Below, in pieces: positions 1 through 32,061 of a stretch of DNA of 64,000 nucleotides; the first letter of the stretch is position 1, and every line of letters begins with the position of its first letter. The translations under genes and the position numbers were made by a program. The stretch is from a virus: IMG/VR virus record IMGVR_UViG_3300050821_003995, positions 31,022 through 95,021 of that record; one strand, written 5' to 3'. The notes under the pieces were generated by a model. That model saw only the letters and a list, made by a program, of their open reading frames with translations. It ran no database searches and was not told the DNA's origin.

Positions 1-211
1 ATTTGGTGTTGTCCCACGTGTATGGGCCTTTGTCTTCGTGACGTGCCATCACATATTGATCGCGACAACACCCACGTTTATTCATCCAGTCATCGCCAAG
101 ATGGTGCTTCCACCAAACAACCCATTCATCGTAGGTGAAATCAAATTTAATGCCACGCCGTAGCGCCGTGCTCTTCTGCTGTCTGAACGCGGTACGAAGC
201 TTGGAACGCAT
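1..211 (-). CDS. HNH-type free-standing homing endonuclease (partial, runs off window)
   Basis: Manual translation MRSKLRTAFRQQKSTALRRGIKFDFTYDEWVCWWKHHLGDDWMNKRGCCRDQYVMARHEDKGPYTWDNTK; same motif set as 5015, 7569 and 39111 ORFs. Confidence 0.7.
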   Translation of the reverse strand, partial: MRSKLRTAFRQQKSTALRRGIKFDFTYDEWVVWWKHHLGDDWMNKRGCCRDQYVMARHEDKGPYTWDNTK

Positions 212-312
212 CTAGAACCCCTACACTACATTAGGCTCATCCTCTACACCTCTAGACACCAACTGTCTAGGTTACCCTACGAGCGCAGCAATTACCCTCG
301 CATTTAATCATG

Positions 313-343
313 GTTTATTCGCTCAGCCTGTGGCATGGTGGTT
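313..343 (+). promoter_or_regulatory. Putative promoter GTTTATTCG-N14-TGGTGGTT upstream of structured RNA 1
   Basis: Same bipartite motif with identical spacing at 4309-4339; each precedes a long structured non-coding tract. Confidence 0.55.
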
Positions 344-344
344 T

Positions 345-960
345 TGTTGTTAGCGGCACCTTGCCCCTGAAACCTGACACCCTACCTAGCAGGTGCTTCA
401 GGCTCACAGGTACCGGCCACAACACCGCCCCGGCTCAGGTTTGTTGCGTGCCGGGGCGGTTACTACCCAAAGGTTTTGACCTGCCCCCGCAAGGCGCTAA
501 TGCGGCCGGGTGGTGACCGCCCTAGCAAAGGCTTTGCCTGGGATACGCCACCAAGCTCCCCGGCCTAGCCTAAAGGTGGTGACGCGGTTTGCCCCGTTAA
601 GTACCCGCCCTAGTACCCCACAGGCAAATGTGGAGCAGGAAGACCGGTACTAGGTTAGGCGGGGGCCGATCAAAGCCTTATGGTGTGTATTATGGAACGG
701 TAACGTACTGCTGACCGAAGCCAATGACCCTGCCAACCTGTTGAATTGGGGAAGCGGGAAGTACAGGCAAGAATACCCGTTCTTCTGGATTGAGAGGAGC
801 TCACCTGCGTCGCATTCGCTTGCGGCGACGAGCGCCTTACGCAGGCGTACCAACAAAATCGTCCAGAGTCAAGTCGGAGTCCAGAAGATTTAATAGCTGA
901 AGATCACCCACAGAAGCAGGAACAGGACGATCAGCAATGTTAGCATTACACGGCTAGTCG
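345..960 (+). ncRNA. Candidate large structured ncRNA 1 (~600 nt)
   Basis: No credible ORF; stems 366-376/390-402, 424-434/450-460 (11 bp perfect), 609-617/646-654 enclosing 618-622/629-633, 781-789/880-888 enclosing 804-810/839-845; G-U pairs favour + strand. Confidence 0.6.
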
Positions 961-967
961 AGTTCAT

Positions 968-1201
968 CTATGTTATTACTCTTGTCACACGTCTTAGATC
1001 ACTGCCAATGCTAAGAACCTCAATGTGCTGCGCTCTGGACGCATTTATAAATAGGTTCGTCCACTCACGCTGGCATACCGGGCAATACGCTTTCCCATTC
1101 AGGATCGGTGCTCTGCTCCTAGGAGCCCAAACAAAGCCATCCGCATGCCACCGCCTAATCAACATTGTTTGACTATGTATATTGCAAAACCAGCTTCTCA
1201 T
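968..1201 (-). CDS. Hypothetical small Cys/His (Zn-ribbon-like) protein
   Basis: CxxH and CPVC motifs; in tandem with minus-strand cluster. Confidence 0.5.
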   Translation of the reverse strand: MRSWFCNIHSQTMLIRRWHADGFVWAPRSRAPILNGKAYCPVCQREWTNLFINASRAQHIEVLSIGSDLRRVTRVIT

Positions 1202-1210
1202 CCTGTATTC

Positions 1211-1477
1211 CTAAGATCGCCGAATACCTAGAATACTCTTTTTCAACTGTTGAAAGATTGACGCTTTAGGCTTGTCTATATCAAAAGGTGCCTGCTTTGG
1301 CTTCTCATACCCCACAAACTGATCGTGCCTGATAAATACCTTCCCGTCACGCATCTTCATAATACCCCGTGCCTTGCCTTCTATCACCTGAAACAGTGTG
1401 AATTGGGCGTCCGTTCTGTACCAGTACCCATCGTCATCCTGCCAACCTTTCAGTTCAGTTTTTGTGTCCTCACTCAC
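1211..1477 (-). CDS. Hypothetical, IExxARGT-motif family
   Basis: VIEGKARGIMKMRDGKVFI; overlapping start/stop with neighbour. Confidence 0.65.
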   Translation of the reverse strand: MSEDTKTELKGWQDDDGYWYRTDAQFTLFQVIEGKARGIMKMRDGKVFIRHDQFVGYEKPKQAPFDIDKPKASIFQQLKKSILGIRRS

Positions 1478-1749
1478 GGTATTTCATCCCTCCAAAGCAT
1501 CCACGCCTGCCAGCCCACCAGTACTTGGATCGTTACGCCCATTGCTTCCAGCTTCTTGAGTGTCAACTTCTCATTATTGATTGCTCTTTCAGCTTCATCT
1601 ACCCAGCTTGGTGTGTAATGATCTTTATCCAGCCTTTGAGTGATCCTGTCTAATGCGCCCGGCATGAATACGTGTTGGGCTTCCAGTTGCCTGAGCGTGG
1701 TTGCAATGATGTCCCTGGTTGAGATCATCTGGGTGTGCTCCGTGCCCAT
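1474..1749 (-). CDS. Hypothetical protein
   Basis: Tightly packed in operon. Confidence 0.6.
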   Translation of the reverse strand: MGTEHTQMISTRDIIATTLRQLEAQHVFMPGALDRITQRLDKDHYTPSWVDEAERAINNEKLTLKKLEAMGVTIQVLVGWQAWMLWRDEIP

Positions 1750-1934
1750 TCATCCTGTGAATCCTTGATCTTAACATAAATTTCCCCATTGACCCGCTTC
1801 ATCGTACCCTTGGCATTCCCCTCAATCCATTGTGGCACCGTGACACCTGCCGGGTGTACCCTGATCCACCTGATCCAGTTGCCCTTGCCATCATCCTCCA
1901 GCATGGTGCCGTTGTAAAATTCCCTGACGGTCAT
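1725..1934 (-). CDS. Hypothetical, IExxARGT-motif family
   Basis: VPQWIEGNAKGTMKRVNGEIY. Confidence 0.65.
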   Translation of the reverse strand: MTVREFYNGTMLEDDGKGNWIRWIRVHPAGVTVPQWIEGNAKGTMKRVNGEIYVKIKDSQDEWARSTPR

Positions 1935-2194
1935 CTTGTTGATGTCCTTGGTGCGCCCATGACCAAATAGCTTGGCAGCGAGAAAATTGTCTGATTGCTC
2001 TTGATAATCTCAATAGGTGCCAGCAGGAACACCCTGTTGCAATCACACGTCCTGAAATGAATCTTTTCATGCACAAGTTTAACATCATAGCCAAGCTCCA
2101 TGGTTCCCCTGGCCCTGCCTTCAATCCACCTAGGAATACTGATCTTGTCCCTGTTGATTACAAACCACCAAAACTGCGGTAGAATATTAGTCAT
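1931..2194 (-). CDS. Hypothetical, IExxARGT-motif family
   Basis: IPRWIEGRARGTME. Confidence 0.65.
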   Translation of the reverse strand: MTNILPQFWWFVINRDKISIPRWIEGRARGTMELGYDVKLVHEKIHFRTCDCNRVFLLAPIEIIKSNQTIFSLPSYLVMGAPRTSTR

Positions 2195-2385
2195 GATCGT
2201 GGGATTGTCCTCAGGATGTATAGGGCGCCGTACATTTTCTTGATCGTCCCCCTTGCGGTTCTCTCAATATACTCGGGAAGAGTCAGGCTTTTGAGTTCTA
2301 CCGGTTCCCAATAACTTTGGGTGTTGTCTTCGTTCATCGGTTCCCACACCCTGGTGGGCTTGGTCCAGTGCGGTGGCCAGTTCAT
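2191..2385 (-). CDS. Hypothetical, IExxARGT-motif family
   Basis: LPEYIERTARGTIKKMYG. Confidence 0.65.
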   Translation of the reverse strand: MNWPPHWTKPTRVWEPMNEDNTQSYWEPVELKSLTLPEYIERTARGTIKKMYGALYILRTIPRS

Positions 2386-2688
2386 CTAGTCGTTCTCGTA
2401 CAAGTAGTTGCCCCTTCTCACGGCTAGCGTTTTGCCCTCATGTTCGTATGAGGCTTCTTCAAACGCATGGCCGGTTGACATCCCTGCTAGGGTTTCGGTT
2501 TGCAGCGAGCCATCATCCAGCAGTTGCAGGCATTCGTATTCCCATACCTTGCTGCCGTCAGCGTCATCCGCACCCGCATCGTGCACCGGGCAACCTGCGC
2601 TGCCGCCCGCATTACACGTACAGGTCTTCCAGCCTAAGCCTAGGTGCTTGACCACCCATTTTTCGTCGGCGGTTTGTGACATCTTCAT
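2386..2688 (-). CDS. Hypothetical protein (CxC...CPVH motif)
   Basis: ATG after AGGAGG-like RBS, overlapping upstream stop. Confidence 0.55.
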   Translation of the reverse strand: MKMSQTADEKWVVKHLGLGWKTCTCNAGGSAGCPVHDAGADDADGSKVWEYECLQLLDDGSLQTETLAGMSTGHAFEEASYEHEGKTLAVRRGNYLYEND

Positions 2689-3062
2689 CCTCCTTTCTTT
2701 TTGTTGCTCAGCCACACCCAAAATTCCCGCGTCAGGTGTTGCTGGTAGTTTTGCCAATAGGAATGCTTTTGCCGTGCCCGCAGCAAATCTTTGGTGATGG
2801 GGAATTTCATCACATTGGCAAACCTGTACTGATTGCTGTCGGAATCAGGTGAGGCTGCCTGGGCAATGTGCCAAGCCCATGCGGCCGCCCGTTGCTGCGG
2901 CGTGCGTCGGTCAACAGCGCAAGCCTCAACCATTTTACGGCCGCCCATGCCGCTTGCCTTGCGGGCTTGCGCTGCCGCTGCCGTGGGGTTGGCCGCGTAG
3001 GCAAAATGCCATTCATGCCATGCCCCGTTTGTGAGATTCACCTTGTACCATTCTTTGGCCAT
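2685..3062 (-). CDS. Hypothetical protein
   Basis: RBS-like sequence, operon packing. Confidence 0.6.
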   Translation of the reverse strand: MAKEWYKVNLTNGAWHEWHFAYAANPTAAAAQARKASGMGGRKMVEACAVDRRTPQQRAAAWAWHIAQAASPDSDSNQYRFANVMKFPITKDLLRARQKHSYWQNYQQHLTREFWVWLSNKKKGG

Positions 3063-3168
3063 GATGCTTCACCTTGGTTTGGGTTTAACAGCGCAGCATA
3101 GCAAACCTGGGGCGAAGTTTCACCTGGGATTATGGAGATCTTGCGACTGAGCGTTTCACCGGCACGTT

Positions 3169-3447
3169 TCACGTTCCATGTTTGTCTCCATACAGCATCT
3201 TGATCAGGTCCTGATCCATTTGATCATACATCCCGTCCAGTGCTGCCTTGCGTTCTTCCTCAACCTGAGCGTTGTATTCGTCCCACGTCATCGGTATGAG
3301 TTCCCGAATGACGCCGTTTTCACGCTTCATCGTGCCGCGTGCGCGCTTCTCAATGAACTCTGGAAGTGGGACACGGCGGGTGACAGTCTTCCAGAATGCC
3401 GCCAGGGCATTCGGCTTGAGGGTGTCGCTCTCAAACTCTGGTTCCAT
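3169..3447 (-). CDS. Hypothetical, IExxARGT-motif family
   Basis: PLPEFIEKRARGTMKRENG. Confidence 0.7.
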   Translation of the reverse strand: MEPEFESDTLKPNALAAFWKTVTRRVPLPEFIEKRARGTMKRENGVIRELIPMTWDEYNAQVEEERKAALDGMYDQMDQDLIKMLYGDKHGT

Positions 3448-4063
3448 GCTTCATCTCATTGCGCTTGCGGTCCAGCAGTTTCTTGATCTCATCTTTGGGC
3501 ATGGTGCCAAGCTTTGCCAACAGTTCGCGCACCTTGGGATCACGTGGCCGTGACCGTTCGGGTATCTTGCGACCAAGCATGGCGCAGCTATTGGCACGCT
3601 TGCGCTTGTGATCCTTGCCCGTCCACGTGATATAACCCAATAGTATTCCCAACGCGGCGGCACGTCCATATTCGTGGCTTGAGTAGGTAATGTGTTCTTC
3701 CCATGTTTGACCCTCGTGCTGCCTCATGGTGCCCTTGGCGCGTCCTTCAATAAACTCAGGCAGCGGGGTCGTCCCTTTGGGCAAGATCAGCCATTCACGA
3801 TGCTTGTGCTGCATGATCTTGAACGGCATGTTGGCCATCGCATCGCGCCACTTCTCAAACCAATAGCCTTTGTCGCGCGTGTCCCATTCGTGCTTGAGGG
3901 GAACCGCTTTGATCGCGGTGGCATTCTTTTGGTAACGGGTAAATGTTTCCAGAGCATCATCATCAGACGATGCTGGTGTCTTACACCAATCCTTATAGGG
4001 CTCTTGCTCATAGCCCAGGTTATCCAATGGCTGGTATTGCCAGTACCTTACGTCATACCACAT
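3431..4063 (-). CDS. Hypothetical, IExxARGT-motif family
   Basis: PLPEFIEGRAKGTMRQHEG. Confidence 0.7.
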   Translation of the reverse strand: MWYDVRYWQYQPLDNLGYEQEPYKDWCKTPASSDDDALETFTRYQKNATAIKAVPLKHEWDTRDKGYWFEKWRDAMANMPFKIMQHKHREWLILPKGTTPLPEFIEGRAKGTMRQHEGQTWEEHITYSSHEYGRAAALGILLGYITWTGKDHKRKRANSCAMLGRKIPERSRPRDPKVRELLAKLGTMPKDEIKKLLDRKRNEMKHGTRV

Positions 4064-4308
4064 ACCAGCACCCTAGCATATTGATAACGAGTTTGCAGCG
4101 AAAATTAAAGAGCCAGCGCCTTTCTATCGGCCGCTGGCTCCAGTTCCAAAAAGGTCCAATTTGGGGGGGTTACTTCATGCTCATCCTCCTAAGTCATTGC
4201 TGGTGCCACCCCACAATCACTTTGGCGTGCCCACACAGTAATTCACCTAACCGGCGAACTTGCAACAGAATTTTTGGACCGCATCGCATCAACTCGTAAT
4301 TAGGCGTA

Positions 4309-4339
4309 GTTTATTCGTTTGAAATTTGCTGTAGTGGTT
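4309..4339 (+). promoter_or_regulatory. Putative promoter GTTTATTCG-N14-TAGTGGTT upstream of structured RNA 2
   Basis: Matches 313-343; first stem starts at 4344. Confidence 0.55.
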
Positions 4340-4342
4340 AAG

Positions 4343-5012
4343 TGTGCCCTGTAGTCGTCACCTTGGCGGCTTTGACCGGGCACGTTTTGATAGGGGCACC
4401 TAACCCCTAGCTGCGCTGCCCCAGTGTACCGGGCAGCCTATGATAACAACGGGCAAACCTCAACCGTTGCCAAGCAAGCCGGTCAAACCGGCACGCTGCA
4501 CTTGATGGGATAAACTGATAATGCGTATGCCCCAATACGGTCAAAGCAAAAAGCGCCTTGTGGCGCCAATGCTGCCGCGCGAAAATGCGCTGCTTGGCCG
4601 TGTTCACTATCATGCAAAGCGTGACCGTAAAAAGTCACGCAACGATCACCGGGTGTACCATTGGGATATTGGCTTCAATAAAGTCGATAACGGCCCAAGG
4701 TTTTGAACGTCACTAAGCGGCAGGCAATTGGAAGGCAGCAGGGCAATTGATCCCGTAGGGTGGCCGTATCAGCCGTCCTATCCCGTCCCCCGGTTGCGTG
4801 GCACTTGATTGGGCCACGTCGGGCGTCAGCGGCGAAGCTATGCCCACAAGCCACTTGCAGATAATTGGCAAAAGGGCTGATCCACGTCAGCATCGTTCAT
4901 TTCAAATTAGATGACCCACCAAGTAAAATTCCAAGGTGAAAACCCTTGGCCGGGCGCTCCCCGCGCGAACATGGGCATTTGGTTTGAAGACCTGAGTGAT
5001 GTTGCCCCTGTC
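4343..5012 (+). ncRNA. Candidate large structured ncRNA 2 (~670 nt)
   Basis: More than a dozen hairpins (e.g. 4344-49/4378-83, 4415-21/4431-37, 4619-25/4634-40, 4756-64/4772-80, 4931-36/4944-49), multibranch stem 4538-48/4591-4600, long-range 4739-47/5001-10; G-U pairs on + strand; no credible ORF. Confidence 0.65.
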
Positions 5013-5014
5013 AG

Positions 5015-5494
5015 CTAACCTTTGATGCCAATAGAAGCGCGTGTTTTTCTTGAGGGTAAGTTCTGTGTTACGTGTTTCCAATACTTGCCCCGGCATATGT
5101 CCTGAACATAACCACGGTTTAGGCCATATTGCCGGGCAAGCTTCTTGTACCCCAATGGTGATGTGTAAAGAGCAATGACTTGTTCTTTAGTCAATTTAGC
5201 ATTGTGGTGGTTCTCACCACATCTTGCTAGATGATTGCAATTATACTTACCAGCCGCAGTGTTCTCAGTTGCTAAAATGCACTGAACATTGTTTGGATGA
5301 TAAGGGCCAACATCATTGTTCCGTGCCATTACATATTGACCATGATGCAACCCCCGCTTCTCAAACCAGCGGTAACCTAGGTGGTCTTCCCACCACTCAA
5401 CCCATTCATCGAATGTAAATTGAAACTTGATGCCCCGGTTCCTGGCGGCAGAACGCTGCCAACTAAAAGCATCACGTATTCTATCTTTTGACAT
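5015..5494 (-). CDS. HNH-type homing endonuclease with C-terminal HTH
   Basis: RGIKFQFTFDEW..WW..LG..RG..GQYVMAR..DVGPY...NVQCI; AKLTKEQV..LARQYG tail. Confidence 0.75.
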   Translation of the reverse strand: MSKDRIRDAFSWQRSAARNRGIKFQFTFDEWVEWWEDHLGYRWFEKRGLHHGQYVMARNNDVGPYHPNNVQCILATENTAAGKYNCNHLARCGENHHNAKLTKEQVIALYTSPLGYKKLARQYGLNRGYVQDICRGKYWKHVTQNLPSRKTRASIGIKG

Positions 5495-5566
5495 AAGTGC
5501 CCCTTGATTGAATTGTATATAACAACACATAACCCGACCCCACAACCTCAAACTAAGGAGACTGCA

Positions 5567-5734
5567 ATGAAATACAATGTGATCTTTAGCCGCGAAGTGT
5601 TTTACTCAGTTCAAGTGGATGCTGCCAATGCTGAAGATGCTCAGCACATGGCAGAAGAAATCTTGGACCCGCCAAGCCACTACTTCGCTGAGAGCAAAAT
5701 TGAGTTCTCAAGCGTCGAACCGGATGGAAACTAG
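5567..5734 (+). CDS. Hypothetical small acidic protein
   Basis: TAAGGAG RBS; V(D/E)A.NAEDA motif common in phage early genes. Confidence 0.7.
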   Translation: MKYNVIFSREVFYSVQVDAANAEDAQHMAEEILDPPSHYFAESKIEFSSVEPDGN

Positions 5735-5736
5735 CC

Positions 5737-5955
5737 ATGACGCAGAACCCGAACTGTGACGGCGACAAGTGCCAGTACGGCACAGGTGAAGTCCGCGTCT
5801 ACCCGTTGGGTGGCGGCGGCAATCTCATCTTGTGCCGTGCGTGCTGGATACACGAAAACAATTACCGCCATTCCCGTGGCGTTGAAACGGGAGCACCTGA
5901 GAATTGGCCCCAGGTCATGTGGGCCTCATCCAAAGTCTACAACACAGGAGCTTAG
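5737..5955 (+). CDS. Hypothetical Cys-rich protein
   Basis: CDGDKC...LCRAC; operon packing. Confidence 0.65.
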   Translation: MTQNPNCDGDKCQYGTGEVRVYPLGGGGNLILCRACWIHENNYRHSRGVETGAPENWPQVMWASSKVYNTGA

Positions 5956-5958
5956 ATC

Positions 5959-6495
5959 ATGTCGACACGTGCCTTATACTCGTTCATCGGTGACGATGGT
6001 AGCTACAACATCTACAAACACCACGATGGATATCCAAGTGGGGCTGCAAAAGCAATAAAATGCACCATCGACTGGTTTGCGTGGCAATTACCACGCTACG
6101 AAAGCGATGAATTTGCAGCGGCGTTCTGTGCTGCCGGGAAAACTCATAGCTTTGAGAACGTTGACGAACTTGTTCTTTATGCCACAAACTATGGCCCGAA
6201 GGGTCAGTACCACACTTCCAAAGGTGGTGGCGTGCGTCTCATGCCACAAGGCAACCCCGGTGAGGTGGCTTGCAAGAATTGCAGCGACATTGCGTACCGC
6301 TATGAGATCAAAATGGGCACGCCACTTCCCGAATATATTGAAAAACGCGCCCGTAAGATTGCACAAACCCCAACCCTTCTTGTCAAAGCATTTGAAGGCA
6401 ATTGGTAGGATGGCGTGGCAAAAGAAACTGAAATCTTCAGCGGCACCTTTGACAAGTTCTATACCTGGGTCATGAAGAAGGAAAAAGCTGCCTAA
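5959..6495 (+). CDS. Hypothetical (IYKHHDGYP family) with in-frame TAG at 6406-6408
   Basis: MSTRA..IYKHHDGYP start; frame continues after TAG as DGVAKETEIFSGTFDKFYTWVMKKEKAA to TAA at 6495. Confidence 0.6.
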
Positions 6496-6752: not shown

Positions 6753-7222
6753 AGAACAAAGAACCCACGATGGCCAAATATCTGGACCGGCTAACGCACC
6801 GGGAACAGCAGATCATCTGCCATCAAGTGAGAACCCACAACAGCGAGCAAAGGTATGCTCATCTGCATCCTTGGCTGTTGCCGTTCATCCCACTTCATCT
6901 AGTTCTGTTTTGTCTGGGCAATAGCAAAACAGTTCGCCCAATAGCCGTTATCATAGCCAAGCTCCCTGGGGCCGAATACTGGGACCTGCCTGATAAGATT
7001 GTTCTGCGGGACAAGAAGGTTCACAGAATGTTTGGCCCACACCCTGAAAAGGGAAAAGCCATCACATGGCTTCCCAAACGAACAGCAGGCAGGACGGTGG
7101 TCAGCCCCATTGTGACACTGGTCCGTAAGCATCGCGGCACCGGCTACGGTTCATGGGAAGTTGGCGTAGCCCCAGAGTACAAGATGGCCGTGCTGAATTG
7201 GCTTAGCGACACCTGCGGCTGA
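6749..7222 (+). CDS. Hypothetical protein
   Basis: ATGA overlap with upstream gene. Confidence 0.55.
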   Translation: MKNKEPTMAKYLDRLTHREQQIICHQVRTHNSEQRYAHLHPWLLPFIPLHLVLFCLGNSKTVRPIAVIIAKLPGAEYWDLPDKIVLRDKKVHRMFGPHPEKGKAITWLPKRTAGRTVVSPIVTLVRKHRGTGYGSWEVGVAPEYKMAVLNWLSDTCG

Positions 7223-7322
7223 GCAAGCCCCTAGGCGTGCCATTACCGGCCGCGCTATACCCCTAGCGCCTTACCTTAAACCCCTATTCAGCGCCGCTTA
7301 AAACGGCAGCAAAGGCCACCCT

Positions 7323-7568
7323 ATGAACCGTCAACCGCGTGCCACGTTGATTGAGCAAGAACCAAGTACCGCCTACATGGTCAAAACCGGCAAGCGTGAG
7401 CATGAGAAGGTCTTGCTCACCGCCGATGGGGTTTCGTGCATGGTCAATGAGGACGGGTCCATTCGCATTGAACTATATACCGATGACAAGCGCATTGGTA
7501 TTCACCTATCACCTGACGACGCCAAGAGTCAGGTGCATGTATTCCGTAGGTGGCAAGAGTTTCGATGA
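7323..7568 (+). CDS. Hypothetical protein
   Basis: ORF with plausible composition. Confidence 0.55.
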   Translation: MNRQPRATLIEQEPSTAYMVKTGKREHEKVLLTADGVSCMVNEDGSIRIELYTDDKRIGIHLSPDDAKSQVHVFRRWQEFR

Positions 7569-28250: not shown

Positions 28251-28994
28251 GTGACCAGCAAGCTTGAAAATGAACTGATCAAGAAGACCAAATTTGAAGC
28301 CCCAAAGGGGGGCTATGATGATCGGCAAGATCATCTTGCGGCTTTGGCCCGCACCGGCAACAAGCTGACCGACGCGCAGTTCGACAAACTTACCGATGAT
28401 GCCGCGAACTGGGTCACCGACGCGATCAAGGCCCTCAACGGCAAACGTGAAATTGAGGAGTTCAGTGACTATAAGGATGACGAAGCAGGTGAAAGCGCTG
28501 ACGAAGCTGGCGATGACGAAGCTTCTGCAAGTGGCGACGATGAAGCCACCGAGGCCGATGACAGTGACGGCGCTGAAGCTGATAGTGGGGATGATGCGGA
28601 CGCCGAGAGTGAAAACGAAGCGGCGGAAGCAGCGGCGGATGCCAAGTCCGCTAAGCGCAAGACAGCTAAAAAGGCTGGGGCTACCGATAAAAAACCCGAA
28701 AAGCCGTTACGGGAAAACTCGCCGAACAAAAGGCCAAAGCTGAGGGACTACAGCGGCGTTGACGCTGCCAAGAAGGACCGCTTTGGGGTGGTGATTGGCA
28801 CCAAGACCCATGATGCCATCAAGATGTACGAAGTCGGTTGTACCTCCACTGAAATCAAGAAGGAGCTAGATGGGCGGTTTTACAACATCCTCAAAGTCAT
28901 GGAGGACAAGGGCCACCGGGTGGAGCGGTTCCCTGGCGGCAAATTCAAGCTAACGCATCGTGAAGATTTGCCCAAAGCCAAAGGCAAGAAGTAA
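28251..28994 (+). CDS. Acidic/basic low-complexity protein with C-terminal wHTH
   Basis: DRFG..GTK...A..MY..G.T..EIK.EL...NIL..KGH.V matches 12608 ORF. Confidence 0.7.
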   Translation: MTSKLENELIKKTKFEAPKGGYDDRQDHLAALARTGNKLTDAQFDKLTDDAANWVTDAIKALNGKREIEEFSDYKDDEAGESADEAGDDEASASGDDEATEADDSDGAEADSGDDADAESENEAAEAAADAKSAKRKTAKKAGATDKKPEKPLRENSPNKRPKLRDYSGVDAAKKDRFGVVIGTKTHDAIKMYEVGCTSTEIKKELDGRFYNILKVMEDKGHRVERFPGGKFKLTHREDLPKAKGKK

Positions 28995-29274: not shown

Positions 29275-31297
29275 AGCGGGCGGCAGGACCCTATATAAAA
29301 GCCGCCCGCTGCTGCTCAGCCCCCAGCAAGCCTATACGCGCCCCAGCCCCGGCAAAGCGTGGTTCATGACCACAACTAGCGTCTGGCGCGTGGACGAAAT
29401 TATCAAGCGCAGAGTACGTGATTGGCGACGCCTGACTGGTGAAACAGGGCATGACGGCGAACGATCAGAAACCATGAGGGCAGATCATGACTCGGTTTAC
29501 ACCGGAACGCATAGCGTATTCCCGGCACCTTTGGTGGAGTGGATTCTTCTGCGGTATGGCGGCGCTTCTGGTGGCCGAATTCTTGATGCTTTTGCTGGTG
29601 GTCCTCCGCGTGGTCTAGTAGCCACAATCATGGGATATTCCTATGTAGGTTTTGAAATTCGACAGGAGCAGATCGATGAGAATTGTAAGACCCTCAAAGA
29701 GCTTCAACTCGAAGGCGCACGGTATATCTGTGGCGATGGGCGCTATTTACAGCCGCAGGAAGACCTTGGTACCTTTGATGCGGCTATCACGTGTCACCCG
29801 GCAGACACAAAAATTACGACCGCATCAGGCATCAAACCAATTGATGCTGTCACTACCGACGACTGGGTCTTCACTCACACAGGAAGCTTCAAACCAGTCA
29901 CCGAAAAACTGATTAGGCACTATGACGGTAAGCTTTACTCATTCTATCGTGACTACAAAGATTTACCTTTACGTGCCACAGCAGAACATCCCCTTTTGAT
30001 AAGCAGACGTGGTTTTGTCAGTTGGACACGTGCCGATGAAGTACAGGTAGGGGATTGTCTCCTGGAACCAGTCAAACACGAGCCTAGAATAAAAATTGAC
30101 GGTGGCCTTATATGGAAACATACCTACCCAGTCGGACGCAGCGGCCGGAAATTACGTGGGCGTGACAAAGTCTACGCAACCAAAGATGTGCTTCGTCTAA
30201 TAGGTTACTTCCTTGCCGAAGGAAACACAAACAATAGAACAGTGCATTTTGCATTTAATGCAATAGAAAATAAATATAAAGCAGAAGTTGTGCGTTCATT
30301 TCGACGGACATTTTTTAGCAACACCTCTCTAAAAATTGCACGTAAGACCACTCACAGTATAGAAGGTCATAGTTCGGCAGCAGCACAATTCTTTGACGCC
30401 AATTGTGGGCGCGGGGCATCTAACAAGCACTTTCCTGGGTGGGTATGGGGCTGCTCTGATAAGTACCTTACAGAACTGCTTAAAGCTCTTTGGAATGGTG
30501 ATGGATGGATGGAACGAAATAGCCCATCACAATTGGGGCACACGCGGTTCGGTTATGCCACCGTATCAGAACAATTGGCAGAGGATATTCGTCATCTGTT
30601 AATACGGTTAGGTGTAGTCCCCTCAGTAAGGGTCAGACCGCCACGGGCCAAAGGTCTTTTCACAGATGGAAAATATCACGTTTTCAAATCAGTACTTCCC
30701 CAATACAATCTAACAGTGAGGGGAATATATGCAGATAAACTTGCTCAGATATTGGGGGTTAGAATACAAAAATCAAAAACGAAACGAAGGCCATCCCGTA
30801 GCCCACAACTCACAAAAGATTATGTGCTATACCCAATTCGTTTAATAACCAAACGAAGGGTTAGTAATCTCCAAGTGTTTAACTTAGAGGTTGCCCACCA
30901 CCATTCCTACGTTGCTGATGGGGTATGTTCTCATAATTGCCCGCCATATTTCGATCTCGAAAAGTACAGTGACCGGGCCGACGACCTCAGCAACCTCGCC
31001 ACCTACGAACAATTCAACTACGGAATGTTTGCTACCGCTTTGGCCCACAAAGCCCTGATGAAGCCCGGTGCCTTTGTGTGCATTGTGGTGGGTAATTTCA
31101 GGGACAAAGAAGGCGAACTCATAGATTTTAGGGCACATACGGTTGAGAACTTCCGAGAGGTTGGTTTTGTGTTTTGGCAGGACATCATTCTGAGCAAGAA
31201 CTTCGGCAGCGCTGCGCAACGCAGCACCAACTCCTGGAAAGGGCACAAGCTCGTGCCCATTCACGAACACCTACTCATTTTTCGTCAACCGGAGTAG
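29258..31297 (+). CDS. Amino-DNA methyltransferase (N4/N6 family) with intein
   Basis: SVFP, LDAFAGG (motif I), VGFEI, T|CPPY (motif IV) after intein removal. Confidence 0.88.
   Translation: MLYKTKAGGRTLYKSRPLLLSPQQAYTRPSPGKAWFMTTTSVWRVDEIIKRRVRDWRRLTGETGHDGERSETMRADHDSVYTGTHSVFPAPLVEWILLRYGGASGGRILDAFAGGPPRGLVATIMGYSYVGFEIRQEQIDENCKTLKELQLEGARYICGDGRYLQPQEDLGTFDAAITCHPADTKITTASGIKPIDAVTTDDWVFTHTGSFKPVTEKLIRHYDGKLYSFYRDYKDLPLRATAEHPLLISRRGFVSWTRADEVQVGDCLLEPVKHEPRIKIDGGLIWKHTYPVGRSGRKLRGRDKVYATKDVLRLIGYFLAEGNTNNRTVHFAFNAIENKYKAEVVRSFRRTFFSNTSLKIARKTTHSIEGHSSAAAQFFDANCGRGASNKHFPGWVWGCSDKYLTELLKALWNGDGWMERNSPSQLGHTRFGYATVSEQLAEDIRHLLIRLGVVPSVRVRPPRAKGLFTDGKYHVFKSVLPQYNLTVRGIYADKLAQILGVRIQKSKTKRRPSRSPQLTKDYVLYPIRLITKRRVSNLQVFNLEVAHHHSYVADGVCSHNCPPYFDLEKYSDRADDLSNLATYEQFNYGMFATALAHKALMKPGAFVCIVVGNFRDKEGELIDFRAHTVENFREVGFVFWQDIILSKNFGSAAQRSTNSWKGHKLVPIHEHLLIFRQPE
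29792..30937 (+). mobile_element. Intein (382 aa) with LAGLIDADG endonuclease
   Basis: CHPADT start, TAEHP block B, IGYFLAEG and LWNGDG, VFNLEV..HSYVADG..SHN|C. Confidence 0.92.
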
Positions 31298-31300
31298 CCT

Positions 31301-31579
31301 ATGTCTGACACCTTCAAATGTCCCGCATGCGGCTTTGGCAGCATGATGGTAATGGACAGCCGGCCCTCCAAAGTTGGTGAGGAACCGGCCGTGCGCAGGC
31401 GGCGCAAGTGCAAGAACTGCGATACCCGAATAACCACCTATGAAATTGCCGGTGCACAGGATATTGAAGACCTGAGATTTTCATTGGGACGTATCATAGG
31501 GTTGGCCCGCAATGCCCAAAGTGCTTTGACCATTCTGCTGGATCAATATGAACCCCTGAGAGCAAGGCTTGACCGATGA
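31301..31579 (+). CDS. NrdR-like Zn-ribbon regulator
   Basis: CPACG...VMDSR...VRRRRKC.NC..R.TTYE; lacks ATP-cone. Confidence 0.75.
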   Translation: MSDTFKCPACGFGSMMVMDSRPSKVGEEPAVRRRRKCKNCDTRITTYEIAGAQDIEDLRFSLGRIIGLARNAQSALTILLDQYEPLRARLDR

Positions 31580-32061
31580 GATTAATTGACCTAACCGGGC
31601 AAAAATTTGGTTTGTTAACTGTCCTCAAGCGTGGGCCAAATGCTACCGGTCACCATACTAGATGGTGGTGTCGTTGTGAATGTGGAAGTAAAAGCCTGAT
31701 ACAGGCTGTTTCACTACGAAGCGGTGATTCTACTGCTTGTGATGCCAACATACATCGGAAAGGGAATAATAAAACCCATGGGTACAGTAAGACAAAAACC
31801 TATTATGTCTGGTGGTTTATGATCCAACGTTGTCACAATGAGAATGTGCCATGTTTTGAGCGCTATGGTGGACGAGGAATTTACGTTAGCCAAAGATGGA
31901 TTAAATTTGAGAATTTCCTTGCTGATATGGGACCAAAGCCGGAAGGCTTAACATTGGAACGGATTGACAACGACGGCCCTTACAGTCGTAAAAATTGCAA
32001 ATGGGCCACCAATGCAGAACAACAACTAAATAAACGTCCTAAAAGAAAGAAAATAACATGA
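31576..32061 (+). CDS. HNH homing endonuclease
   Basis: DLTGQKFG.LTV, CRCECG, YGGRGI, DMG.KP..LERIDNDGPY..NCKWAT. Confidence 0.88.
   Translation: MRLIDLTGQKFGLLTVLKRGPNATGHHTRWWCRCECGSKSLIQAVSLRSGDSTACDANIHRKGNNKTHGYSKTKTYYVWWFMIQRCHNENVPCFERYGGRGIYVSQRWIKFENFLADMGPKPEGLTLERIDNDGPYSRKNCKWATNAEQQLNKRPKRKKIT

Follow-up and report, generated by a model that had tools for sequence, protein, structure and literature searches.

Genomic setting and coding potential

The window analysed here is a stretch of 64,000 nucleotides that corresponds to bases 31,022–95,021 of the genome of a soil phage, whose 95,021-bp IMG/VR record is rated complete. In this genome, the genes to the left of ~28.6 kb are oriented leftward and those from ~29.2 kb rightward, with the main divergence of the two arms at 28,643/29,156. 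A leftward cluster of small paralogous genes (968–4063; coordinates are those of the window unless stated otherwise) is inserted within the rightward arm. Adjacent to it, ~2.6–3.3 kb to the right of the main divergence, lies the tract considered here, at 212–967 (31,233–31,988 in genome coordinates). All genes flanking the tract are located on the minus strand. Its left boundary is the start codon of a 177-aa homing-endonuclease-like gene, the 5′ part of which occupies 2–211 (minus strand), while the rest precedes the window (full ORF at 967–1500 of locus L001, minus strand; genome 30699–31232). The product of this gene matches phrog_16521 (E 2e-17) and, judged by eye, resembles a homing endonuclease; a Pfam search with it gave nothing above threshold. 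A paralogue is present at 5015–5551 (minus strand), and each of these two genes (177–178 aa) adjoins one of two non-coding tracts, the present one and a second one, RNA 2, on the other side of the cluster. Among the related loci described below, the endonuclease-like gene was found in only one (L014, 2631–3182), at the same place, and such a patchy distribution suggests mobility. The right boundary of the tract is the stop codon of a 77-aa Cys/His-motif gene (968–1201, minus strand; alignment A2), which has homologues in L003 and L016.

The tract had been described as free of open reading frames in the preliminary description, and this was confirmed, as each of the six frames of 212–967 contains 9–17 stop codons of all three kinds. 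The longest ORF (310–516, 68 aa) gave no match in Pfam and PHROG searches and is broken in the sole homologous locus (L019), with alignment gaps that are not multiples of three. The six-frame tblastn comparison of the tract with the relatives and with the genome itself gave nothing below E 0.2, and a pseudogene remnant was rejected, as no protein-level relative was found in this set. The tract is therefore non-coding. Rfam cmscan gave no match in 212–967, either at the gathering score (64 kb) or at E up to 10 (positions 1–6000), and the tRNA/tmRNA search found none. A group I intron, considered because the genome has four of them and an endonuclease-like gene adjoins the tract, was also rejected: there was no Rfam match at E up to 10 and no similarity elsewhere in the genome, and the plus-strand gene upstream is complete, with a stop codon and a terminator of its own.

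Comparison with related loci

Related loci were collected using the 164-aa protein encoded just upstream as a probe, which gave 2 viral records and 14 metagenome contigs; these 16 loci form the comparison set, and ~100 contigs carry homologues of the 164-aa protein. Further searches did not enlarge it. Blastn against 50,697 phage records gave no match, the small neighbouring 88-aa protein had no relatives, and probing viral contigs with the 77-aa protein, the 94-aa protein of L019 and an 18-member alignment of the 164-aa family returned only the two known records. The pattern AGCGGCACC..TACCGGCCAC gave 23 stretches in viral contigs, all attributable to chance, and a longer pattern gave one chance match in genome contigs, in a Planctomycetota MAG.

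With the whole tract as a query, nhmmer gave a single significant match, that of L019 786–956 to 325–482 (E 4.5e-9). This part, referred to as the RNA 1 element, thus recurs in 1 of the 16 related loci. The GC-rich block 483–780, which includes a bulged hairpin (604–617/646–663), has no homologue in the 16 loci or elsewhere in the genome and can be regarded as filler specific to the window phage. Its z-scores against shuffled sequences were −0.5 on the plus strand and −1.8 on the minus strand. The remaining part, 781–967, has only short stretches in common with a module of the relatives, such as an exact 18-mer. The nhmmer and alignment patterns show, at the level of sequence comparison, that 212–967 is composed of three blocks with separate and different evolutionary histories.

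In most relatives, the 164-aa operon ends in a terminator. Beyond it come, in this order, an array of CTCATC/CTAATC and TCYRGA words, a GGAGC box, a GC hairpin whose sequence varies, CTTGTCAAG and the first leftward gene. In the window phage, the endonuclease-like gene sits within this array and splits it; what remains in the tract is a remnant at 212–297, with three CTAG-containing TCTAGA-like words at 212, 252 and 267 and GCTCATC at 235. Similarity to L014 upstream of its endonuclease-like gene ends near 250. In the relatives, where the arrays follow the terminator of the upstream operon, they are irregular and consist of CTCATC/CTAATC and TCYRGA words, the latter in the forms TCTAGA, TCCAGA and TCTGGA (L003 10590–10900; L012 2050–2400; L013 1680–2060; L016 1660–1800; L022 1390–1600; in the window, 212–270). 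No conserved ORF was seen on either strand of the arrays of L003 and L013. The arrays may serve to bind proteins or may belong to a non-coding transcript that runs leftward. Hardly any two relatives are organised alike at this spot; the small ORFs vary, and the endonuclease-like gene may be present or absent. The element as cargo of that gene was rejected, as the two occur separately, the gene being absent from L019 and the element from L014.

The right-hand module and a candidate leftward promoter

The right-hand module (781–967) contains a GGAGC box at 796–800, a GC hairpin at 804–810/839–845 and the 18-mer at 872–889, which is exact in L002 and L011. In the module alignment (A4), GGAGC and GTCAA are invariant in 7 lineages. 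Consensus folding on the MAFFT alignment gave no pairs, because the hairpin cannot be aligned; the hairpins were therefore scored from single folds. The hairpin between the two boxes was significant in L002, L003, L012 and L013, with z-scores of −2.7 to −4.4, but not in the window phage (−1.2).

Within this module, a sigma-70-like promoter candidate directed leftward was recognised at 872–844 (minus strand), with TTGACT, a 17-nt spacer and TACGCC. The first hexamer matches the consensus in 5 of 6 positions, the second, a weak −10, only in its TA, and the site was not called by the consensus scan. The pattern TTGAC[AT]-N17-TA occurs once in the same module of L002, L003, L012, L013, L016 and L020, so that both hexamer positions and their spacing are fixed in 7 lineages while the spacers themselves have diverged, and the 95-kb genome contains only one other match. 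Fixed spacing with diverged spacers is the pattern expected of a leftward promoter, and the site is accordingly listed as promoter-like. Between 212 and 1200, no terminator-like site was found on either strand except one inside the endonuclease-like gene. As no terminator separates the gene cluster, the tract and the endonuclease-like gene, leftward transcripts would have to cross the tract.

The left block: a bipartite motif and a folded element

At the left edge of the tract, a 24-nt bipartite motif, TCG[TC][AC]-N10-[GT]TTAT[AT]TTCG, is present on the plus strand at 298–321 and is a candidate rightward promoter. Its 3′ half is similar to a −10 hexamer (TTTATT or TATATT), with no recognisable −35. 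The 95-kb genome contains 2 copies, at 298–321 and at 4294–4317, the latter before RNA 2. It also occurs once in each relative that bears RNA 2 (L002, L003, L011, L014 and L017), always before RNA 2, whereas the L019 version is degenerate and has a different spacing. Because the motif, which stands at the left edge of the present tract, is common only with RNA 2, a rightward start at this point is plausible. The preliminary description saw no extended sequence identity between the two tracts, and nhmmer agrees, this 24-nt motif excepted.

The motif is followed by the conserved folded element at 322–482, provisionally listed on the plus strand, which corresponds to the nhmmer match with L019. 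It is composed of a long imperfect hairpin (~346–420) and a perfect 11-bp GC stem (424–434/450–460), and similar two-domain folds were obtained for the window phage and L019. The stem (424–460) has 11 perfect pairs, 9 of them G-C, a 15-nt loop and an energy of −25.7 kcal/mol. It is one of 7 perfect stems of at least 10 bp in the 95 kb, as compared with 0–5 in shuffled sequences. The stem is kept in L019 with a change from C-G to A-U. In L019 the stem is directly followed by UUUUGCUUG and on the plus strand, with TTTTGCTTG, has the U run expected of a terminator. In the window phage, by contrast, the stem is followed by TTACTACCC, without a U run, and with UUACUACCC it falls short of a standard U tract; it was also missed by the terminator scan. 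In L019, the element is followed by an ORF of 40 aa (1077–1199) that is preceded by a strong ribosome-binding site, GGAGGAGGA, and has no counterpart in the window phage. Overall, the first ~160–220 bases look like a conserved small RNA element, and the folded element belongs to no described family.

Fold energies and the question of strand

The preliminary description interpreted 345–960 as a second large structured RNA of ~600 nt on the plus strand, with the two RNAs flanking the gene cluster. Such an RNA would be a phage counterpart of the large ornate RNAs and would form a pair with RNA 2. The helices on which it was based are all present: 349–355/495–501, 366–376/390–402, 424–434/450–460, 604–617/646–663, 618–622/629–633, 781–791/878–888 and 804–810/839–845 form 7, 11, 11, 14, 5, 10 and 7 pairs, respectively, with duplex energies of −5 to −26 kcal/mol. 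The argument that G-U pairs favour the plus strand did not hold, as G-U accounts for only 2 of the 65 pairs and folding of the minus strand is equally good or better. Since the other 63 pairs are Watson-Crick, the helices are uninformative on strand. The fold of the whole tract reaches −264 kcal/mol on the minus strand versus −245 kcal/mol on the plus strand, with 213 versus 191 pairs and 28 versus 15 G-U pairs.

The z-score of the whole tract (−4.3 on the plus and −4.1 on the minus strand, 60 shuffles) and the absence of an ORF speak for a single large RNA, as do the motif in common with RNA 2 at the left edge and the excess of VGA over TCB words on the plus strand, which is described below. 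However, whole-tract shuffling blends parts that differ in GC content (59% and 49%), and when the blocks were shuffled separately the plus-strand values were only −2.0 (325–482), −0.5 (483–780) and −1.65 (781–967); in 120-nt windows across the tract, z never fell under −3.0. Moreover, of the three blocks only 325–482 recurs, in one locus of the 16, 483–780 is without a homologue, and 781–967 is a separate module that carries an opposed promoter-like site. The strand-neutral helices and the lack of an Rfam match even at E up to 10 weigh in the same direction. The RNA 1 element is absent from relatives that keep RNA 2 (L002, L003 and L017), and the two therefore do not travel together. Base-pairing between RNA 1 and RNA 2 was rejected as well; the duplex energy was weaker than in 100 of 100 shuffles, and a whole-length duplex calculation is meaningless at such length. 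Therefore, of the preliminary description the non-coding nature of the tract, the real hairpins and the absence of a known RNA family stand, while the single RNA, the pairing with RNA 2 and the assignment of strand are not supported, and one large plus-strand RNA is now considered quite improbable.

For the element itself, the evidence on strand is divided. Its z-scores in the two phages are −2.9 and −3.0 on the minus strand versus −2.4 and −1.75 on the plus strand, and its minus-strand folds are better defined, since in each phage the centroid lies near the minimum-energy structure. In the two-sequence consensus, the minus strand forms 34 pairs, 3 of which show compensatory changes, and the plus strand 29 pairs, with 2 such changes, a covariation that is anecdotal because only two copies exist. 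A helix between the two most conserved blocks of the element contains two conserved G-U pairs on the minus strand only, and these are A-C mismatches on the plus strand. The plus strand is favoured by the position of the motif and by the U run after the stem in L019.

These observations allow a reading in which the functional molecule is a minus-strand RNA, a long structured leader or intercistronic spacer of the endonuclease-like gene mRNA, which would be fed by the 872–844 site and by read-through, with the element working on the minus strand. The better minus-strand folds in both phages, the 34 consensus pairs with their 3 compensatory changes and two conserved G-U pairs, and the lack of a terminator between the minus-strand genes on either side are all in agreement with it. 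However, the element of L019 has no endonuclease-like gene downstream of it, its U run follows the GC stem on the plus strand, and the motif lies at the plus-strand 5′ edge of the element and is common with RNA 2, which carries its small gene on that strand. Such a minus-strand leader is considered unlikely.

Tracts free of VGA and TCB words

The left block has a further property, which concerns the words VGA (AGA, CGA or GGA) and TCB (TCT, TCG or TCC). These occur at a density of 63 per kb in the genome, and they are entirely absent, on both strands, from 320–542, a stretch that begins right after the motif and covers the element. All 5000 dinucleotide-preserving shuffles of 320–542 contained at least 2 such words, and in 5000 shuffles of each of three tracts, with dinucleotides fixed, none reached zero. 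The genome contains 22 VGA/TCB gaps of at least 120 nt, five of them of at least 200 nt, with a maximum of 515, while six control strand-symmetric trinucleotide sets gave no gap over 120. TGA/TCA occurs at normal density in the tracts. These include 320–542, 4356–4509, 7208–7359 and 19 others, and their positions are conserved across relatives. In L019, 777–977 is also VGA/TCB-free, starting right after the TTAT core, and hence the copies of the element lack these words in both phages despite many substitutions and indels. The leaders of RNA 2 are VGA/TCB-free in four lineages, and the 164-aa operon is so from promoter region to terminator in every relative; coordinates of such stretches include genome 29842–30590, L002 7473–8783 and L010 1–1018. 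A cause in 7-deazaguanine modification was rejected, as the genome has no TGT/DpdA-like gene and shows only a weak N6/N4 methyltransferase match. The latter belongs to a 679-aa ORF at genome 60279–62318 (29258–31297 of the window; open frame 698 aa) and, with E 1.5e-5, is below the Pfam cut-off.

The correspondence of the VGA/TCB-free tracts to transcription units suggests a constraint linked to transcripts, while the symmetry of the absence on both strands suggests a constraint on DNA or on transcription of two strands. On the plus strand of 320–781 there is 1 TCB against 10 VGA, and the same polarity is found on the sense strand of 17 of 17 nearby genes. In the genes this polarity results mostly from GAN codons and is largely an amino-acid effect, which makes it a weak guide for a non-coding tract and lessens its value for a single large RNA; it gives weak support to a possible rightward unit of ~460 nt.

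One conceivable explanation is that early transcription units are kept VGA/TCB-free so that the nucleic acid escapes, or does not recruit, a three-base-specific factor, such as a frequent-cutting nuclease or a base-modifying enzyme. The units concerned would be the RNA 1 element, within the first 220 nt of the tract, the leader of RNA 2 and all of the 164-aa operon between promoter region and terminator. Taken together, this is unlikely. If true, it would reveal an undescribed layer of phage-host conflict or self-regulation, and the RNA 1 element would be defined by immunity as much as by its fold; such a nuclease or modifier, were it the cause, would exert on the early regions of phages a kind of selection that is new. 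Apart from its cause, the VGA/TCB-free property is a side result worth following. Two further observations concern CTAG, which is under-represented in the genome at 1.5 per kb. Genome positions 31,000–32,000 (window 1–979) have 9, the genome maximum and a ~6-fold excess, and CCCTAG is 9-fold enriched within VGA/TCB-free tracts, which make up 4% of the genome but contain 5 of its 13 copies.

An element acting at the DNA level, as a protein-binding site or in replication or packaging, with the palindromes and short words serving as duplex or cruciform sites, has to be weighed against these data. The helices would form equally in DNA because almost all of their pairs are Watson-Crick, and the symmetric absence of VGA/TCB, the highest CTAG count of the genome in the kilobase of the tract and the CTCATC and TCYRGA arrays at this place in relatives fit such a function, as does the distance of only ~2.6–3.3 kb from the main gene divergence. 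However, the tract contains no tandem or direct repeats and no iterons of usual length or regular spacing. Specifically, 212–967, with a GC content of 0.54–0.59, lacks the combination of at least three regular direct repeats of ~17–22 bp and an AT-rich neighbour that characterises iteron-type origins. GCTCATC is not enriched in the window, and the minimum of the cumulative GC skew lies elsewhere, at genome 39.1 kb. The preliminary description had named a genome terminus or packaging site as the finding that would speak against an RNA; a terminus is unlikely, as the tract does not lie at the record end but 31 kb inside a 95-kb record rated complete. In addition, the VGA/TCB-free tracts of the relatives coincide with transcription units, extending from the promoter region as far as the terminator, and this speaks for transcripts. 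A DNA-level element is an unlikely explanation.

Another view is that the tract is largely functionless, a spacer of gene-turnover debris at a spot prone to recombination, whose hairpins result from its high GC content. The changing layout among relatives and the unique middle block, whose plus strand folds like shuffled sequences, are what debris would give. Against this, 325–482 has been retained in a phage that is only 66% identical in the neighbouring protein, both of its copies are VGA/TCB-free despite substitutions and indels, and the 3′ module is conserved across 7 lineages. A functionless spacer is therefore regarded as improbable.

Proposed function of the tract

The reading preferred here, though tentatively and with somewhat less than even confidence, is that 212–967 is a composite non-coding control spacer, and not one RNA gene, which would function by the following mechanism. 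In the block 298–545, the 24-nt motif is followed by the 160-nt two-hairpin element, with the filler at 483–780 and the end module at 781–967. The left motif would start a short rightward transcript, perhaps reaching ~545 or 781, and the GC stem, which is terminator-like and has a U run in L019 and none here, would stop or slow RNA polymerase. In the opposite direction, leftward transcripts from the 872–844 site, together with read-through from the minus-strand cluster, would cross the tract to reach the endonuclease-like gene at 211. With a rightward unit and leftward transcripts crossing the same tract, transcription of both strands is probable. In that case, the rightward unit would restrain leftward read-through in cis, either by converging with it or by pairing as an antisense RNA. 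Should this composite spacer be the correct interpretation, the locus is an ordinary object, that is, a regulatory spacer that combines a small folded element with promoter-like sites in opposed orientation, and not a second giant phage RNA.

Comparison with known systems

Large ornate RNAs of bacterial and phage-associated origin include GOLLD, ROOL and OLE (PMC12286853, PMC5737381). The tract resembles them in being a long, GC-rich, hairpin-rich and ORF-free part of a phage genome. However, unlike GOLLD, ROOL, OLE, HEARO and raiA, it has no Rfam model match at E up to 10. Its conservation is limited to at most 160 nt in one relative only, and multi-domain covariation, as known in the large ornate RNAs, is absent.

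A closer parallel to the arrangement proposed here is found in temperate phages, where face-to-face promoters and cis-antisense control have been described, for example for pR/pL of coliphage 186 (PMC6593788; modelling in PMC4519249). As in that system, two opposed promoter-like sites and an overlapping stretch are present in an early or regulatory region between opposed gene blocks. The candidate sites here are ~520 nt apart, the left one does not conform to the sigma-70 consensus, and no repressor gene was identified in this region, which distinguishes it from 186. The spacing of pR and pL in coliphage 186 is 62 bp.

The perfect 11-bp GC stem with its 15-nt loop is similar to intrinsic terminators, with the U run confined to the L019 copy. 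Intrinsic terminators without a U tract are reported for some high-GC bacteria.

Within the same genome, the nearest counterpart is the RNA 2 unit. RNA 2 encodes a conserved basic protein of 61 aa and is found again in L002, L003 and L017, in contrast to RNA 1, which lacks a conserved ORF and has its only other copy in L019, and beyond the motif the two are not similar in sequence. What the two units have in common is their layout: the same 24-nt upstream motif precedes a VGA/TCB-free, hairpin-rich leader of 150–220 nt, and each unit adjoins a copy of the endonuclease-like gene.
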